This document shows positions 4,261-59,560 of a stretch of 64,000 bases of DNA, in pieces. Origin of the DNA: Lachnospiraceae bacterium Phil5. GTDB taxonomy: Bacteria; Bacillota; Clostridia; TANB77; CAG-508. The stretch lies in NCBI GenBank assembly GCA_002633185.1, contig NWBM01000002.1:209640-273639 (forward strand), given 5' to 3'. Under the pieces are notes generated by a model, which was not told the origin of the DNA, ran no database searches, and worked only from the letters and a program-made list of their open reading frames with translations. Position 1 is the first letter of the stretch, and every line of letters begins with the position of its first letter. The position numbers were made by a program, and so were the translations under genes.

Positions 4261-5697
4261 ATGGAAATTCCTGAAGAAATAAAAAGTAAAATAATAAATC
4301 TTACCTTAGGTACAAAACTTCCTACATCAAAAATATTAAAACTATTTGAGCAAGAAATAAAGATTGATTGTAAAGATTATTATGCTATTATAGAAGAATA
4401 TCAGCAAAAAACAGGAGTACAAATTGTTAAAGGAATGAATTGCAAAGAAGCACCTAAAAAGATATCAGATAAAGAAATAATAGACCTATGCGAGAGAAAA
4501 ATTCCTTTTAGAGAAATTTATATGGAATTACTAAAAAATGGCAAAGCAATTAATGAATGTGAACTTAGACAAAGAATAAATAAATTATATCCATCAAAAG
4601 ATGGCAAAAGAAGCAGATATGTTAAAAGGAAATCTCCTAAGTCAACAATAGCTTTTAGTGATAAAGAAATAAAAGATATGTACGAAAGTGGGATGAGTAT
4701 AGATAATATAATAGAGGCTTATAAGATGAGAGGAGTGACAATTTCTAAACGTACACTGAGACAAGGAATTAGAAGATGTTATATTAGAATGGGCGAAAAA
4801 ATGCCTACTAGAGCAGAGATACAAGATAGATTAATTACATATGAAGACTTAATTAGATTTAGAGATAAAGGTTTCTCATATAAAGAAATATCCAATTATT
4901 ATAAAGAACTTGGAATCAAAACTACATTTACATATATAGAAAAAAGATGTAAACAAGCATTTGAAAATGCTAAGAAAAGAGATCCTAATGCGAACTGGAA
5001 GAATAATATTGCTGACAAGCAAAGAATTTTTGAGTTAAGTTTGGCTGGTTATTCAGAGAGAAAAATTACACAAATGTTCAATGATGAAGGAATAAATATA
5101 TCAATGAATACAGTTGCAAAAATATGCAAGCAATGTTATAAAGAAAAAGGAATTAAAAATTCTCTCAAAAAAAGAAGAAGTAAGACAGTTATTAGTGACC
5201 AGGAAATCTTTGAACTATGTGAACAAGGATATACCTATAAACAGATGAAACAATATACTTCAAATAAAGGTGGAGTAATAAGCACAGCGACAATAACTAA
5301 AAGATGCAAAGAGATATATAAATCTAGGGGATTAGATGTTCCTAAAGAATCTAATATTGAAAAAAGTAAAATATTAAAAAGTAAAGTGTCAGATGGTGAA
5401 TTATTGAAATTAAGGAAAAAAATGACATATTCTCAAATTCAAAAATATTTTGCTCAAAAGGGAATTATTGCAAGTGCTGCGTATTTTGAAAATAGATTAT
5501 TAAAATTAGCAAAAAAAATTGATATAAGATGCATGGATGAAAATAAAATGAAAAATGCGCTATTAAATTTGAAGGCTTCAAAAGGTGCAACAGATGAGCA
5601 ATTAAAAACAATAGGCCAATTATATGGTATAGATTATGCTCCTGTGAAAGAAAGATTAAATCCGTATAAGGTAGATAAAAGAATAGATGAAAGATAA
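4261..5697 (+). CDS. paralog of 3286-4236 with about 6-7 HTH-like modules
   Basis: Same module periodicity and the same C-terminal domain. ATG 4261 follows AAGGAG (the ORF-track start at 4252 is less likely). Confidence 0.7.
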   Translation: MEIPEEIKSKIINLTLGTKLPTSKILKLFEQEIKIDCKDYYAIIEEYQQKTGVQIVKGMNCKEAPKKISDKEIIDLCERKIPFREIYMELLKNGKAINECELRQRINKLYPSKDGKRSRYVKRKSPKSTIAFSDKEIKDMYESGMSIDNIIEAYKMRGVTISKRTLRQGIRRCYIRMGEKMPTRAEIQDRLITYEDLIRFRDKGFSYKEISNYYKELGIKTTFTYIEKRCKQAFENAKKRDPNANWKNNIADKQRIFELSLAGYSERKITQMFNDEGINISMNTVAKICKQCYKEKGIKNSLKKRRSKTVISDQEIFELCEQGYTYKQMKQYTSNKGGVISTATITKRCKEIYKSRGLDVPKESNIEKSKILKSKVSDGELLKLRKKMTYSQIQKYFAQKGIIASAAYFENRLLKLAKKIDIRCMDENKMKNALLNLKASKGATDEQLKTIGQLYGIDYAPVKERLNPYKVDKRIDER

Positions 5698-48346: not shown

Positions 48347-49372
48347 TTAATCCATACAACATAATTCATTTATTATCTTTTTATATTGCACAACTAATCT
48401 ATCTAAACTTTCTATTGTAATATATTCATTTGCTTCATGTGGATTTATTGGTCCCGTTCCAAGTATATATCTATTCTTAGCCTGTATAAAACTCGCTTCT
48501 GTTATAAAGTTCGTTGTTTTACACTTTTCACTTTCGGTTATAAATGGTCTTATATCGTTTATTATTTCATACTCAAATTGATATTTTTCTTTTAATCTAT
48601 TGAGCTCTTCAAATATTTTCTGCCTATGTCCATTATTCATAACTCTAAAATCTATATATGTTATACAACTATTAGGAACAATGTTAATGCTTTTACCTCC
48701 ATCTATTTTCCCAATGTTCATAGTTGTATATGGGATTTTAAATCTTTTATCAGTTTCAGATTTTAAAACATTATAAAATAATTTTAATTCATCTAAAAAA
48801 CTAATACATTTTTCTATTGCATTTATCCCTTTTTCAGGATTACTAGAATGTGCAGATTTACCTTCAAAGTCAACCTTAAATTCTAATAGTCCCTTACTTC
48901 CATTCATTATCTCATTATTAGTTGGCTCTCCTACAATTACATTTTCTGGAATTTCTACATTTAGACTGTTTATTTCTTTTATTCCATTAAAACCAATTTC
49001 TTCATCATATGTAAAAATCAACTTAATTCCATACTTTAATTTATTCCAATCTATATCTAATACAGCTTTCAAAATTGCAGCTATACCACCTTTCATGTCA
49101 CAGGTTCCAAGTCCATATAATTTATTATCAACTTCAGTTAGTTCCAAAGGATTGTATTTCCAATCGTTTCCACTTTGTACCGTATCAGTGTGTCCAATAA
49201 AACCAATTTTGCATTTTTCTTTTATACTCATAATTAGACATTTACTTCTATAATCTAATTTAAATCCTTTCTCTTCTAGGATTCCTTGTATATATTTCAT
49301 TATCTCTAGGTTTTCTTTGTCTTTAAATGTATCATATTTAATTAATTCTTTTAATATTTCTTTAGCTTGCAT
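48347..49372 (-). CDS. M20-family metallopeptidase (ArgE/DapE-like)
   Basis: GHTDTV, CDMKGG and YDEEIG metal-ligand motifs. Starts 1 nt after the hisS-like stop. Confidence 0.75.
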   Translation of the reverse strand: MQAKEILKELIKYDTFKDKENLEIMKYIQGILEEKGFKLDYRSKCLIMSIKEKCKIGFIGHTDTVQSGNDWKYNPLELTEVDNKLYGLGTCDMKGGIAAILKAVLDIDWNKLKYGIKLIFTYDEEIGFNGIKEINSLNVEIPENVIVGEPTNNEIMNGSKGLLEFKVDFEGKSAHSSNPEKGINAIEKCISFLDELKLFYNVLKSETDKRFKIPYTTMNIGKIDGGKSINIVPNSCITYIDFRVMNNGHRQKIFEELNRLKEKYQFEYEIINDIRPFITESEKCKTTNFITEASFIQAKNRYILGTGPINPHEANEYITIESLDRLVVQYKKIINELCCMD

Positions 49373-49373
49373 T

Positions 49374-51449
49374 TTAAACCTCCTCTACTATTCCAGTAAT
49401 AATTGCATTTTCTATTAATTGTTTTTTCGTATCTAATTCTATGTTAACAGTATATCCTGATGGTTGAATTACTTCCAACATTTCTTCTTTACAATTATAA
49501 TAATTATATATAGCTGTTGCTAGACTTCCACTACCACAAGCTGTTTCATAAAATACTGTGTCGATATCTTTCACCCATACTACAGGATTTATTTTTATCT
49601 TATCTAAAACATTTTCCAATAGCATTATTCCTATTGCTTTTTCAGTCGTCTGAATATTTTTATTCATAAATTCTTTCAATTCTTTTTTTGCCAGTTCTTC
49701 ATTATCTTTTAATTTTCGTATATATTCTTTAGATTTCTCCTCATCAAAAATTACTATTAGAATCCCATCTATTTTAACAAGGATAAAATCGTTTTGCACT
49801 TCTATTAACTCATCTATATTTTTGCTTATATCTATCTTTATCTCAACTTTATTATCATTTAATACTCTACCTTTTAAACTATTATTAGTCCCAGATACAG
49901 AAATTTCAATACTATCTTCATTTTCTTTAGAATATTCATAAATAGCACATCTTGTAGCATTCATACAAAATTCTCCGCCAGCCATTTCTAATCTATTTGT
50001 TTCATTACTCAAAAATCCTACTTGTTCAACTTCTAAATATTTCTCCATAATAAGTCTATTTATTAAACATTTTTGTTTATCATTAAATTTTGTACTTTTT
50101 ACCAAGGCGGTTTTGTTTCCTCCTGGATTTAATATTTTATACTCTATTTTCGGTATTGAAATTAATTCTTGTATAGTATTGATTAAATTATCAATATTTT
50201 CAGTTATTTGAAAATTATTTCTCATATCTTTAATAATTAACTTATTTTCTTTTAGCTCATCTTCTCCCAATATAATAACTAATGGAATTTCAGTTTCATT
50301 GGCACTACTTAGTGCCTTTTTTAGTTTTAAATTATTCATTTCAACTTCAACTTTTATATTTTTTTGTCTTAATTCATTTGCTAACTTTAATGCTGTTATA
50401 TTGTTATTCATTGGGATTATATATATATCTATACTATTTATATTTTTCGTTTTGTCTTTTAATATTTCAAAAATAACATCTAATCCAAAACTAACTCCAA
50501 CAGCAGGATATTTTTTTCCATCTCCTATAAATTCTCCAATCATATTGTCATATCTACCACCGCCACCAATGCTAGATTTTATACTACCATCTACTACATA
50601 TACTTCAAATATTGTTCCAGTATAATATTCTTGACCTCTTGCAAGTGTTGCTGAAAACATTACATATTCTGTTAAATCAAGTTCTCTAATATATTTATTT
50701 AATTCACAGATTTCATTTAATCCCTCTTTTAAATTTATATTTGTTGTATCTTTGAAAAGTTCATTTAAGCTATTAAATTCCATTGATAAATACTTAATCA
50801 TTTTATCTATTTGGTCATCTTTTAATTCTTGTTTCTTAAATTCTTCAATTAGTTCTTCTTTTGTTAATTTTTCCATTTTATCTATTACAGTTATTACTTG
50901 ATTAATTTTTTCGCTTTCAATATCACATATTTCAATTATTCCATTCATAAGCTTTCTATTGTTATATTTTATAACTATATCTATACCTAATTTTTTATAT
51001 CCTTCTACAAATATTGATATAAGTTCGGCTTCAATCATTTGTCCTTCAATTCCAACAGTATCTACATCACATTGTATAAATTCTCTGGTTCTACCCTTTT
51101 TTATTGGACCATCACGAAACACTTTTCCAATTTCATATCTTTTAAAAGGAAGCTTTATGTCTTTATTTGAAGCTATATATTTGGCAAACGGTACCGTTAA
51201 ATCATATCTTAAAGCTAAATTTCTATTTCCTTGATCTGATACTTTGTATATTTCTTTTAAAATATCATTATCTTCCTCATATTTTAATGCTAATAAATCA
51301 TAATAGCATAAAATTGATGTTTCTAAAGGGCTATACCCATATTTTTCAAATGTTTCTTGTAGAGTTTTTGAAATAAAACTTCTAATTTTGGCATCCTTTC
51401 CTCCATAATCGATACTTCCTCTCACGTTTTTTAATCCTTCATTTTTCAT
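49374..51449 (-). CDS. hisS: histidyl-tRNA synthetase fused to a C-terminal DapF-fold (PLP-independent racemase/epimerase-like) domain
   Basis: HisRS motifs (LRYDLTVP, FRDGPIKKGRTREF.QCDVD, GGGGRYDNM) plus an anticodon-binding domain. A ~260-aa extension follows, with NPGGNKTALV, GGEFCMNATRC and ETACGSGS resembling the two catalytic-Cys motifs of DapF. Confidence 0.8.
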   Translation of the reverse strand: MKNEGLKNVRGSIDYGGKDAKIRSFISKTLQETFEKYGYSPLETSILCYYDLLALKYEEDNDILKEIYKVSDQGNRNLALRYDLTVPFAKYIASNKDIKLPFKRYEIGKVFRDGPIKKGRTREFIQCDVDTVGIEGQMIEAELISIFVEGYKKLGIDIVIKYNNRKLMNGIIEICDIESEKINQVITVIDKMEKLTKEELIEEFKKQELKDDQIDKMIKYLSMEFNSLNELFKDTTNINLKEGLNEICELNKYIRELDLTEYVMFSATLARGQEYYTGTIFEVYVVDGSIKSSIGGGGRYDNMIGEFIGDGKKYPAVGVSFGLDVIFEILKDKTKNINSIDIYIIPMNNNITALKLANELRQKNIKVEVEMNNLKLKKALSSANETEIPLVIILGEDELKENKLIIKDMRNNFQITENIDNLINTIQELISIPKIEYKILNPGGNKTALVKSTKFNDKQKCLINRLIMEKYLEVEQVGFLSNETNRLEMAGGEFCMNATRCAIYEYSKENEDSIEISVSGTNNSLKGRVLNDNKVEIKIDISKNIDELIEVQNDFILVKIDGILIVIFDEEKSKEYIRKLKDNEELAKKELKEFMNKNIQTTEKAIGIMLLENVLDKIKINPVVWVKDIDTVFYETACGSGSLATAIYNYYNCKEEMLEVIQPSGYTVNIELDTKKQLIENAIITGIVEEV

Positions 51450-51737
51450 AAATATTTCCACCTTTCTTTTTAGAAAATAAAAATAGATATACAAAAAGAC
51501 ACTATTTATAGTTTATTTCCTACAAATAGTGTCTCTTAATATATCTATTAATTAATATATTTTTAAACTATCGTAGGCACAGCGCTTTTAGCCTGTACCT
51601 ACGCTTACTGTCAGCAGTAGTTACAAGCTCCTACGATGATGATGTAATTGGTTTAAAAATATATTTGATTTCATTTTATTTCCTTCTTTCTTTTATTTTA
51701 TATTTAAAATTATATCATGTTTTTTAATATTCGTCAA
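51450..51737 (-). promoter_or_regulatory. promoter, leader-peptide attenuator and terminator upstream of the hisS-like gene
   Basis: TTGACG (51732-51737), 17 bp, TATAAT (51709-51714). Also a leader ORF, competing helices, and the terminator AGACACTATTT-loop-AAATAGTGTCT plus a T-run (about 51493-51537). Confidence 0.6.
51621..51674 (-). CDS. 17-aa leader peptide MKSNIFLNQLHHHRRSL with three consecutive His codons
   Basis: GAAGGAAA SD 6 nt before the ATG. CAT CAT CAT at 51636-51644 overlaps helix-forming segment AUCGUAGG. Confidence 0.5.
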   Translation of the reverse strand: MKSNIFLNQLHHHRRSL

Positions 51738-51900
51738 TGTGTTTTTCTTGCTTAATGTATATACACATAATAATTAAACTAATCACAGTATTTATAAAAC
51801 TTTTTGACATCCATATTTAGTATTTTATGCTGTCAAATGGATGTCAAAATGCCTTTTTTATTATATTTAATATATTAGTTCAGGCTTGTAACCCTTGATA

Positions 51901-54681
51901 TTACTGATTTTTACCACAGCAATTTTTATACTTCTTACCACTTCCACATGGACAAGGATCATTTCTACCAACTTTAGGTTCTTTGTTAACAACAGTCTTG
52001 TTAAGTCCTCCCTCTTTTGGAGCAATGTTTCCATCTACTAAGTTAATAGCAGCACCATTTAAACTTGCATCTTGTAAGCTTGCATCTTCAATTTCAGCAG
52101 CTTCACTTCTTACAACGTTTTCGTTCTTTTCTAAGTGTAATAATATTTTAGCTACATCTTCTTTAATAGATTCAATCATTGCATCGAACATATCGAAACC
52201 TTCAATTCTGTATTGAACAACTGGGTCTTTTTGACCATAAGCACGTAATCCAATACCGTTTTTTAGTTCATCCATGTTATCAATGTGTTCCATCCATTGT
52301 TGGTCAACAATTTTTAAAACAATAACTCTTTCAATTTCTCTTAAATCTTCAGAACCAATCATTTGCTCTTTAGCTTCATATCTGTTGTGAACTGCTTCTG
52401 TTAATTCATCTATTAATTCATTAACTTTAACTTTTCTTCCTTCAGTTAAATCAATTTCATTAGTAATTCCTAATGTATTTGAAATTTCTTGTTTTATTGC
52501 TTCATCTATTGTAACATCTTCATCAATGGCAAATGCATTAACTATGTTTTCTACAGTAGATTCCATCATTCCAACAACGTTGTCTTTTAAGTTTTCACCA
52601 TCAAGAACTTCACGTCTTTGTTTGTAGATGATTTCTCTTTGTGTGTTCATAACATCGTCATATTGAAGTACGTTTTTACGAATACTAAAGTTCTTTCCTT
52701 CAACTTTCTTTTGAGCATTTTCAACTGTTTTTGAAAGCATTCCAGATTGAATTGGCATGTCTTCGTCTGCTCCTAATGTATCATATACTTTAGTAATTGC
52801 ATTACCACCGAATATTTTCATTAGGTCATCATCTAATCCGATGTAGAATTTAGAATTTCCTGGGTCTCCTTGACGTCCTGAACGTCCACGTAATTGGTTA
52901 TCAATACGTCTTGATTCGTGTCTTTCTGTACCAATTATTTTTAAACCACCGGCATCAATAACTTTTTGTTTTTCTTCTTTTATTTCTTCATCAAATTGTT
53001 TTTCTAGGTCTTTAAATTTTTGTCTAGCTTCTAATACTTCTTCATCATCTGTTTCATTGAATGCTGTTGCTTGTTCAATTAAGTCTGATGAATATCCTTC
53101 TTTTTTCATTTCTATTTTAGCTAAGTATTCGCTGTTACCACCAAGCATAATATCAGTACCACGACCAGCCATGTTTGTTGCTATTGTAACTGCACCAAAT
53201 TTACCAGCTTGAGCTACTATTTCAGCTTCTTTTTCGTGTTGTTTAGCATTTAATACTGTATGAGCAATTCCTGCATCATTTAACAATTTGCTTAATTTCT
53301 CAGATTTTTCAATTGAAACTGTACCAACTAGAACTGGTTGTCCTTTTTCATGGCTTTCTTTAATTTCATTTATAACAGCTCTGAATTTTGCAGCTTCATT
53401 TTTGTATATAACATCTGGTTCGTCAATTCTTATTAATGGTCTGTTTGTTGGAATTTCAATAACGTCTAATTTGTAGATTTCTTGGAATTCGTCTTCTTCT
53501 GTCATAGCAGTACCAGTCATACCAGATAATTTTTCATACATTCTGAAGTAGTTTTGGAATGTAATTGTAGCAAGTGTTTTAGATTCATCAGCAATTTTAA
53601 CTTTTTCTTTCGCTTCAATTGCTTGATGTAGTCCGTTATTATATCTTCTTCCATACATAATACGTCCTGTAAATTCATCTACAATTAGAACTTCTCCATC
53701 TTTAACAATGTAGTCTATATCTTTTTTCATAATACCATGTGCACGTAATGCTTGGTTAACATTATGAACTAACTCAGAGTTTTCTATATCATTGAAGTTT
53801 TCAAGTCCAAATTCTTCTTCAGCTTTTGCTATACCTTTTTGAGTTAATGTTGCAGATTTAGCTTTTAAGTCTACTATGTAATCATAGTTTTCATTATCTT
53901 CAGCTTGTTCTTCATCTTTAACATCTTCTTCAACTATAACTTTAGCTTGTAATTTTCTTACGAAAGAATCAGCTTTTTTATATAAGTCTGAAGATTTATT
54001 AGCTCTACCTGAAATAATAAGTGGTGTACGAGCCTCATCTATTAAAATACTATCAATCTCATCAACAATAGCATATGCTAATTTTCTTTGAACTAATTGA
54101 TCTTTGTATATAACCATGTTATCTCTTAAGTAATCGAAACCAAATTCATTATTTGTTCCATAAGTAATATCGCAATTATATGCATCTTGTTTTTCTGCTG
54201 GTTTCATTCCTGCAATAATTAATCCTACAGATAAACCTAAGAAACGATATATTTTTCCCATCCATTCACTATCTCTTTTTGCTAAGTAATCATTAACAGT
54301 AATTATATGAACACCTTCACCTGTTAAGGCATTTAAGTATGCTGGTAATGTAGCAACTAATGTTTTTCCTTCACCTGTTTTCATTTCGGCAATTCTACCT
54401 TGGTGTAATATAATACCACCAATTAACTGTACATCAAAGTGACGTAAACCTAAAACTCTTTTTGATGCCTCTCTTACAACAGCAAAAGCTTCTGGTAATA
54501 AATCATCTAAAGTTTCACCTTTAGTTAATCTTTCTTTAAATTCATCTGTTTTATGTCTTAATTCGCTATCAGTTAATTTAGCTATTTCATCTTCTAGGCC
54601 ATTAATTTTGTCCACTAGAGGCATAACTCTTTTAACTTCTTTTTCACTGTAACTTTTAAATATTTTGCTAATAAAACTCAT
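51901..54681 (-). CDS. secA: preprotein translocase ATPase SecA
   Basis: 926 aa with DEAD-like motor motifs and a C-terminal zinc motif [14 protein letters not shown]. Confidence 0.97.
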
Positions 54682-59200: not shown

Positions 59201-59212
59201 TTCTTGATATAT

Positions 59213-59560
59213 AATAAGTAAATCTATAAGCCGGGTTCTGTCTTGAATAGTCATTTATCTAGTACATATATTACTATATGCCTCAAGCCACCTCAGTTTG
59301 AAGATGACGAGCAGTCTTAGCCTTCAATTAGGGTGTTGCTCCAGATGGGGTTTACACTGTCCCAGTATGTCACCATACCGGCGGTGAGCTCTTACCTCGC
59401 CTTTTCATCCTTACCTACTAATGTAGGCGGTTATTTTCTGTTGCACTTTCCTTAAGGTTTCCCTCACTGGACGTTATCCAGCATCATTGCTCTGTGGAGC
59501 CCGGACTTTCCTCGTACGCTTTCTTTCGAAATTGCTATACGCGACTATTCAATTTACTCT
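59213..59560 (-). ncRNA. rnpB: RNase P RNA, bacterial type A
   Basis: The minus strand contains GAGGAAAGTCCGGGCTCCACAGAGC (P4 5' strand), GGTAAGAGCTCACCGCCGG and ACAGAACCCGGCTTAT (P4 3' strand). Terminal P1/P2 pairing: AGAGTAAATTGAATAGTC with GACTATTCAA...ATTTACTT. Ends are accurate to about 5 nt. Confidence 0.93.

Follow-up and report, generated by a model that had tools for sequence, protein, structure and literature searches.

The window analyzed here is a stretch of 64,000 nucleotides of contig NWBM01000002.1 from Lachnospiraceae bacterium Phil5 (assembly GCA_002633185.1, positions 209,640 to 273,639), and our subject is a histidine leader element encoded on its minus strand between secA and a gene of 691 codons (Table 1). 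The leader consists of a promoter, a short open reading frame (ORF) with three successive histidine codons, and a chain of mutually exclusive RNA helices closing with an intrinsic terminator, the end of which lies ~44 nt upstream of the ATG of the 691-codon gene at 51449. We interpret it, with a probability of about 80%, as a ribosome-mediated leader-peptide attenuator that senses charged tRNA-His and controls an operon encoding a fusion of a histidyl-tRNA synthetase (HisRS) to a racemase-like domain, followed by an M20 peptidase. This reading rests on the computed elements and their conservation in relatives, on covariation in the terminated (OFF) fold, on the pairing potential of the antiterminated (ON) fold, on the association with histidine genes and on a dependence of the fold upon ribosome position. 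An earlier note on this DNA had already placed here the consensus-like promoter, the 17-codon ORF with its Shine-Dalgarno (SD) sequence and three CAT codons, and a terminator ~45 nt before the start codon, and had assigned the leader to the ribosome-mediated His-codon class. All these elements were recovered on the minus strand, and the class assignment is supported by the conservation of the ORF, by the histidine genes behind the leader, by a covarying terminator and by exclusive helices that depend on ribosome position.

The first gene of the operon encodes a protein whose HisRS part scores 341.8 bits with TIGR00442 (cutoff 286.75) and whose racemase-like part matches His_racem_CntK (4.5e-26) and the histidine racemase entries 9cr1/9cr6 of the PDB, the solved enzyme of F. 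nucleatum, with both catalytic cysteines aligned. These matches identify the 691-residue product as a genuine histidine-tRNA ligase fused to a putative histidine-racemase-like domain, and the gene called hisS-like in the earlier note is thus more than a plain hisS. A literature search for such a fusion found no paper pairing 'histidine racemase' with 'histidyl-tRNA synthetase'. The M20 metallopeptidase encoded by the second gene may free histidine from peptides or from N-acyl-histidine. On the other side of the leader, the end of secA has a long hairpin of its own followed by Us (51795-51860, minus strand; -18.9 kcal/mol, z = -5.3), which makes the His leader a transcription unit of its own. 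A search for further copies of the leader element, whole or partial, found none in the window or in the family loci, and no other leader-like ORFs with a codon run occur in the window, except for Leu runs of doubtful meaning.

Table 1. Positions of the histidine leader, its sequence elements and the adjoining genes in the window
Feature	Position	Strand	Remarks
secA	51901-54681		gene on one side of the leader
Sigma-70-type promoter	51709..51737	-	-35 TTGACG (51737-51732), 17-nt spacer, -10 TATAAT, TG-extended TGATATAAT (51717-51709); 11/12 consensus positions
SD sequence of leader ORF	51681..51686	-	GAAGGA
Leader ORF	51621..51674	-	17 codons + TAA, encodes MKSNIFLNQLHHHRRSL; ATG 51674 to TAA 51621
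Segment A	51651..51665	-	AAUAUAUUUUUAAAC; ORF codons 4-8, 5' strand of clamp helix A:A'; in minimum free energy (MFE) fold and RNAalifold prediction
Regulatory His codons	51636..51644	-	CAT x3
Pairing segment of the earlier note	51630..51637	-	AUCGUAGG; His-Arg-Arg codons; complementary to CCUACGAU; probably dispensable
Segment 1	51617..51629	-	AGCUUGUAACUAC; Ser-Leu-stop + 4 nt; proposed ribosome-sensed strand, partner segment 2
Segment 2	51590..51603	-	CGUAGGUACAGGCU; 5' arm of hairpin P2; alternative partner segment 1
Segment 3	51567..51582	-	CUGUGCCUACGAUAGU; 3' arm of P2; alternative partner terminator 5' arm (antiterminator)
Segment A'	51554..51568	-	GUUUAAAAAUAUAUU; 3' strand of clamp helix; 2-nt overlap with segment 3
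Segment C	51539..51548	-	AUAGAUAUAU; 5' strand of terminator-bracketing helix C:C'
Segment 4	51520..51537	-	AAGAGACACUAUUUGUAG; terminator 5' arm; upper 12 nt are the antiterminator target
Segment 5 and first U-run	51491..51511	-	terminator 3' arm (51511-51494) and U-run UCUUUUUGU (51499-51491)
Segment C' and second U-run	51474..51492	-	GUAUAUCUAU (51492-51483) and U-run (51483-51474)
SD sequence of the 691-codon gene	51465-51458	-	AAAGGUGG; ATG at 51449
HisRS-racemase fusion gene	49374..51449	-	691 aa; HisRS (residues ~1-430) and CntK/HisR-type histidine-racemase-like domain (~433-691); Pfam, NCBIfam
M20 metallopeptidase gene	48347..49372	-	ArgE/DapE-like; second operon gene

A protein-based scan of one genome per species recovered orthologues in metagenome-assembled genomes (MAGs) of uncultured gut Clostridia; their HisRS is 57-92% identical, and all of them carry the same leader ORF. 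To avoid circularity, relatives of the leader itself were sought with an ORF-independent DNA pattern built from non-coding leader parts only (GTAGGTACAR, CCTAC and TATTTGTAGG, with gaps). The pattern had no match in shuffles of the window (0 expected), and it matched 14 genome loci and 38 metagenome loci, 37 of the latter being true members; the other one (L021) was a chance match in GC-rich DNA and was dropped. Together with the window these loci provide 52 leaders, 48 of them with enough upstream sequence, and the 42 non-redundant full-length leaders form the alignment, A1, on which the pair counts below are based. The leader is thus more than a chance arrangement and represents a conserved family that can be recovered by its non-coding parts; it is absent from Rfam 15.

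The genes behind these leaders provide an independent tie of the element to histidine. The first gene encodes the HisRS-racemase fusion in 15 loci, a stand-alone racemase-like protein, usually followed by the M20 peptidase, in 12, HisRS alone in seven, a second type of HisRS in four, a family-3 solute-binding protein of an ABC transporter in three, the M20 peptidase itself in two (L022, L054) and HisG, followed by HisIE, in one, with two more first genes unassigned to a family. The two halves of the fusion occur as adjacent separate genes in L009, L011 and L048, other relatives have a stand-alone racemase gene behind a leader of the same family, and in most loci the peptidase gene has been retained immediately downstream of the gene for the fusion or the racemase. 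Judged by their predicted products, these genes appear to constitute a histidine regulon, so that the leader type is shared by histidine genes other than the hisS-like gene to which attention had initially been drawn.

The SD-preceded ORF is kept in all 48 leaders with enough upstream sequence, which were found without using it, and its ATG, frame and stop are likewise kept in 48/48 despite variation in the first codons and in the spacing. In 42/42 aligned leaders an SD-like motif precedes the ATG by 6-10 nt, and a TGnTAnnAT element is kept at a constant distance from the ORF throughout A1. The most conserved part of the peptide is the His run, with HHH present in 46 of the 48 leaders, HH in L016 and HQH in L025. 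The 42 leaders of A1 encode 28 distinct peptides, in which IFLN, L, HHH and S/G-L are nearly fixed, and residues 2-4 and the two residues after HHH (R/C/Y/S, then R/K/I) are variable. Many differences between leaders are synonymous, namely TTA/CTA for Leu (31 to 8), AAC/AAT for Asn, AGC/AGT for Ser, TTG/CTG for Leu, and in L009 a change of the Arg-Arg codons from CGT AGG to AGA AGA that leaves the peptide unchanged; this pattern argues for selection on the peptide reading frame. Codon choice is also peculiar: A1 contains 124 His codons, every one of them CAT rather than CAC, as against 70% CAT in the long genes of the window, and the rare codons CGT, AGG, AGC and TTG are almost fixed where RNA pairing needs their bases.

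It is conceivable that the ORF is translated and that its nascent peptide, IFLN.LHHHRRSL, arrests the ribosome when free histidine or another ligand is present, in the manner of TnaC or SpeFL, or that the element reports general translation stress. The peptide is indeed far more conserved than the leaders of classical attenuators, and, both strands of helix A:A' being nearly invariant, pairing alone leaves the fixed IFLN codons unexplained. However, the prominence of the His run and the histidine-specific regulon do not suit such an arrest, the residues that follow HHH vary freely, as do residues 2-4, and the invariance of third codon positions points to RNA pairing rather than to a peptide constraint. 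Furthermore, arrest on abundant histidine would switch the genes ON at a time of histidine plenty, and this is hardly sensible for genes of uptake or for HisRS and hisG. We therefore consider nascent-peptide arrest very improbable as an account of this leader.

In the OFF fold, segments A and A' form a clamp helix, segments 2 and 3 form the GC-rich hairpin P2 (51603-51571; -21.6 kcal/mol, z = -6.4), segments 4 and 5 form the terminator (an 18-bp stem at 51537-51494 followed by a U-run; -22.5 kcal/mol, z = -7.6), which is enclosed by helix C:C', pairing across the first U-run. P2 follows the 3' end of the ORF after ~20 nt in all 48 leaders with enough upstream sequence, and the whole leader folds at -79.7 kcal/mol as against -36.7 +/- 4.0 kcal/mol in shuffles (z = -10.9). 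The OFF fold is 92.9% paired in A1, compared with 37-56% when the partners are slid by 1-3 columns, and it shows two-sided changes in 18 pairs and 79 cells, as against 9.3 and 27.8 in shuffles (0/500 reach the observed values). Helix A:A', which is present in the MFE structure as well as in the RNAalifold prediction, is 95.5% paired with two-sided changes in 4 of its 15 pairs, an example being the compensatory change in L030 and L033, where UUUUCAAAC faces GUUUGAAAA. Six terminator pairs show two-sided changes, and one of them (columns 204 and 243) is seen as C:G, G:C, A:U and U:A. In C:C' such changes affect 6 of 10 pairs, as in L024, where GCCAUAUAGA pairs with UCUAUAUGGC. This covariation supports the predicted terminator, A:A' and C:C', the last two of which had been missed in the earlier note. 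Together with the second U-run, C:C' may give a two-tier terminator or may possibly serve as a 5' structure that stabilizes the read-through mRNA. Pairing of A' with the U-rich tract or with C' was considered as an antiterminator and rejected, being weak, restricted to AU pairs and such as would form too late.

The alternative, ON fold comprises helix 1:2, in which the end of the ORF (AGCUUGUAACUAC) pairs with the 5' arm of P2, and the antiterminator 3:4, in which CCUACGAUAGU and ACUAUUUGUAGG form 11 bp, including a single G-U pair and interrupted by a bulged U, just as the earlier note had proposed for these two segments. Helix 1:2 is the MFE structure of a nascent transcript ending at 51590 (co-transcriptional folding with RNAfold), and its energy of -18.4 kcal/mol (z = -3.5) is close to that of P2. 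It is 98.8% paired in the family, the synonymous AGT and CTG variants keep its pairing, and the RNAalifold consensus puts it in place of P2. Segment 3 reads CCUACAAAGUAGU in L009 and L011, with greater complementarity to the terminator arm. Over the 42 leaders, the pairability of 1:2 and 3:4 amounts to 99.2%, and no one-sided change disrupts a pair.

A different first link of the helix chain had been proposed in the earlier note, namely that AUCGUAGG (51637-51630), which spans the His-Arg-Arg codons, competes with GUAGGUACAG for CUGUGCCUACGAU, so that ribosome occupancy of AUCGUAGG sets the fold. Both complementarities exist; that of AUCGUAGG to CCUACGAU is perfect in the window and extends to 94.6% of cells across the family, with a two-sided change in one sequence (L011) and with the rare codons CGT AGG kept in most leaders. 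Nevertheless, in five of the eight pairs of this helix the sole departures are unpaired cells, and when the Arg codons vary the pairing is lost with no compensation, as in L009 (AGA AGA), L029 (TAC AAG) and L030/L033 (TAT ATA), all else being kept. P2 is moreover local and far more stable than the AUCGUAGG helix, and a ribosome stalled at the His codons would mask AUCGUAGG, leading to P2 and to termination under starvation, which is the wrong sign for the switch. Hence this version of the ribosome-switch link is extremely unlikely, and the likely sensor is instead the conserved AGCUUGUAACUAC, which pairs with the 5' arm of P2.

The attenuator reading demands that the position of the ribosome decides between the two folds. 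The suggestion of the earlier note to fold the RNA with the ORF masked gave a divided answer: equilibrium folds of the full-length leader retain P2 and the terminator throughout, and folds at the decision point, where the terminator 5' arm would have emerged from the polymerase and the 3' arm would not, depend on ribosome position. As the full-length MFE structures show no switch, decision-point and ensemble calculations were used, with the ribosome assumed to cover -12 to +15 relative to the P site. For the leader in the window, the energy by which the antiterminated fold (1:2 plus 3:4) exceeds the MFE at the decision point is +1.0 kcal/mol when the first His codon (His1) is in the A site, +5.9 kcal/mol with no ribosome and +11.7 kcal/mol when the stop codon is in the A site. 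In the set of 42 leaders, forming the 3:4 core has a median ensemble cost of 0.0 kcal/mol for His1, 3.6 for His3, 7.9 for the stop codon and 2.4 for no ribosome, and the His1 cost is below the stop cost in 42/42 leaders. A codon scan of 20 diverse leaders with three footprint sizes found positions from codon 3 through the His run to be permissive (0-0.2 kcal/mol) and those from the next codon to the stop to be non-permissive (4-8 kcal/mol). In silico, therefore, a ribosome stalled with any codon beyond the His run in its A site no longer allows the antiterminator to form. The permissive boundary falls right after the His run because 6 nt separate the end of segment A from the first His codon, and another 6 nt lie between the last His codon and the start of segment 1.

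These observations suggest the following mechanism. Translation of the leader ORF would be initiated from its SD sequence, and a ribosome awaiting His-tRNA at the first or second CAT codon would stall there, covering segment A and thereby breaking the clamp, while its footprint would end just before segment 1. Segment 1 would then pair with segment 2, and CCUACGAUAGU of segment 3 would be freed for the upper part of the terminator 5' arm; in this ON state the terminator could not nucleate and RNA polymerase would read through into the operon. This choice would have to be made in the decision window described above, as a kinetic decision that needs polymerase pausing. A ribosome that passes the His codons would reach the stop codon and cover segment 1, so that P2 and then the terminator would form, and after release of the ribosome the clamp would close. 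In the resulting OFF state A:A', P2 (2:3) and the terminator (4:5, extended by C:C') would be present together and transcription would stop ~44 nt before the gene. Since A:A' and 3:4 are topologically exclusive, with a 2-nt overlap of their strands, the clamp would favor the OFF state in the absence of a ribosome as well, which amounts to default termination without translation. Expression of the operon would accordingly be predicted to respond to histidine.

Several observations weigh against this interpretation. A simple consensus terminator scanner gave no terminator call in the leader; it missed the terminator because the latter is GC-poor, and support for the terminator comes instead from folding and covariation. 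The ON helices have no two-sided changes, as they are nearly invariant and as the search pattern itself prescribed segment 2, CCUAC and segment 4. The conservation of the peptide beyond that of classical leaders hints at extra constraints, among which a role of the nascent chain is possible. In silico, stalling at any codon between codon 3 and the His run is equally permissive, and the ribosome footprint used in these calculations is an assumption. Whichever part of the leader the ribosome masks, P2 and the terminator persist in the full-length equilibrium folds; moreover, once its 3' arm has been made the terminator beats the antiterminator by ~19 kcal/mol, and the antiterminator leaves the lower 7 nt of the terminator 5' arm uncovered, so read-through must be kinetic. 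Finally, runaway transcription, in which RNA polymerase moves ahead of the ribosomes, has been reported for Firmicutes (PMC13323073), and pausing would therefore be needed to synchronize polymerase and ribosome.

In Firmicutes hisS and the his genes are usually controlled by T-boxes. A His-specifier T-box (RF00230) would share with the present leader its regulatory position, its terminator/antiterminator output and its signal, the charging of tRNA-His. It would in addition have a Stem I, a specifier loop and the T-box sequence, none of which is seen here, and it would bind the tRNA directly, in place of the sensing via the translating ribosome that is proposed for the present leader. In agreement with the earlier note, which had found no T-box sequence, no covariance-model match to a T-box was obtained at the gathering threshold in the 64-kb window or in 15 related loci, nor did the T-box, the His_leader RF00514 or other plausible Rfam families match at E<=10 in the region 51350-51950. 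The sole output of the Rfam scan of the leader consisted of microRNA-like hairpin matches on the terminator, which are implausible.

The same searches bear on the idea that the leader is a riboswitch-like or a protein- or tRNA-binding RNA with an incidental ORF, for instance a T-box variant, a HutP-like target with GUAGG repeats or a histidine aptamer. Such a role might explain the extreme nucleotide conservation across the leader, including loops and third codon positions, as well as the very stable fold and the three UAG-containing GUAGG motifs. Against it stand the lack of any T-box or other Rfam family in the leader and the 15 loci at the thresholds just given, the retention of SD, ATG, frame and stop in 48/48 leaders with synonymous changes preserving the peptide, and the permissive boundary right after the His codons, which would be a coincidence. 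The HutP-like version in particular was rejected, since the copy of GUAGG in the ORF is dispensable and the copies lie 30-70 nt apart, a spacing unlike that of HutP sites. In our view an RNA of this kind is very unlikely here, and the ribosome-mediated attenuator remains our preferred interpretation.

A close mechanistic counterpart of such an attenuator is the trp/his class, including the enterobacterial his leader (RF00514). Both have a short ORF with a run of the cognate codon, exclusive helices and an intrinsic terminator, and in both termination is the default without translation and ribosome position decides the fold, here in silico. There is no sequence or covariance-model match to RF00514 (E<=10, 51350-51950), and the leader has three His codons as compared with seven in the E. 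coli his leader. The topologies also differ: whereas in the trp/his class the stalled ribosome masks the first member of the helix chain, here it would break the clamp A:A' and spare the sensor strand, which would instead be masked by a ribosome at the stop codon. The genes controlled are a synthetase fusion in the window and salvage, transport and biosynthesis genes in relatives.

The implication of the earlier note that such a leader is unusual for Firmicutes, where synthetase genes are normally under T-box control, was overstated, as His leader peptides were predicted there in 2010 and 2022. Naville & Gautheret 2010 described a His leader peptide upstream of hisS* (a hisS paralogue) and hisZ in bacilli and noted 'regular' leader peptides as replacing T-boxes (PMC2965389). 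Those leaders, which can be compared by description only, share with ours a His-codon ORF and a premature terminator before a HisRS-family gene in Firmicutes; they occur in Bacillus hosts, as opposed to the gut Clostridia and the HisRS-racemase fusion considered here. Ashniev et al. 2022 found no RF00514 match in Firmicutes and reported candidate His attenuators upstream of his operons for three groups, namely the B. cereus group, Peptostreptococcaceae with Lutispora, and Erysipelotrichales (PMC9413887). Inspection of their Additional file 6 shows that the Peptostreptococcaceae/Lutispora leaders have the same order of elements, with 3-5 His codons, an ORF ending in ...x-Leu-TAA, a hairpin and a terminator, that their hairpin 5' arm reads cAUAG(G/A)UACAa as compared with cGUAGGUACAg here, and that by eye the end of their ORF can also pair with the hairpin 5' arm. 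They control his biosynthesis operons, unlike the fusion operon in the window. When the nhmmer profile of our family was run on the published Peptostreptococcaceae, Lutispora and Acetoanaerobium leaders, they scored 6.3, 5.0 and 3.5 bits and ranked 1, 2 and 4 among 600 shuffles, with E values of 0.27-2, which are not significant. This suggests that our family is distinct in sequence from these leaders or at most a very distant relative of them. Taken at the level of sequence, the leader would be a new family of a known, so far computationally predicted kind.

The leader-peptide attenuators for amino acids listed so far in Firmicutes, all of them computational predictions, are thereby joined by a covarying family of ~50 members. 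In this clade of uncultured gut Clostridia one leader type appears to stand over the histidine regulon, including two HisRS types, the racemase-like gene, the peptidase, uptake and biosynthesis, a task that in other Firmicutes falls to T-boxes or to the HisR repressor. The location of the His codons exactly between the clamp and sensor strands, which are about one ribosome footprint apart, allows sharp predictions, and makes the leader a test case for ribosome-mediated attenuation where transcription and translation are thought to be uncoupled. The HisRS-racemase fusion is an unstudied enzyme architecture, and so is its operon with the peptidase unstudied. We offer tentatively, and hold to be somewhat doubtful, the possibility that a 'two-lock' attenuator, requiring both a broken clamp and a free sensor strand, has replaced T-box and HisR control regulon-wide in this uncultured, small-genome gut Clostridia clade, and that HisRS, fused to the racemase or encoded next to it, and the M20 peptidase form an undescribed pathway that salvages D-histidine or His-peptides into tRNA charging at low His-tRNA.

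Some loci depart from the common arrangement. A more distant racemase-like gene (53% identity) in L017 (2520-3000) is preceded by a different leader ORF, MVIKLSLVQLNLRHHVWSENHPYSIVEE, with two adjacent His codons and with hairpins and a terminator of its own, which suggests a second, divergent type of His leader. A gene of the SLOG/LDcluster4 family lies behind the leader-controlled hisS in L025 and L026, and in L035 and L041 the leader precedes a gene whose product begins MKK.E.GIVFSNDIY..., with a weak PRTase-like match, and then a SLOG gene. GC-rich palindromic insertions (GGCGCCCAATGGGCGCC-like) or inserts of ~100 nt are found after the terminator in L034 and L045, and such palindromic or ~100-nt inserts lie between the terminator and hisS in L003 and L004. 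In L008 (1-250) the promoter is joined straight to hisS at about codon 56, the leader and the 5' end of the gene being missing, whether through a natural deletion or through an artefact of assembly of the MAG.

Among other RNAs met in these sequences, the window encodes at 59211-59560 (minus strand) a class A bacterial RNase P RNA (274.8 bits), a class believed to be typical of Clostridia rather than Bacilli, and L025 has a c-di-GMP-I riboswitch at 5211-5299.

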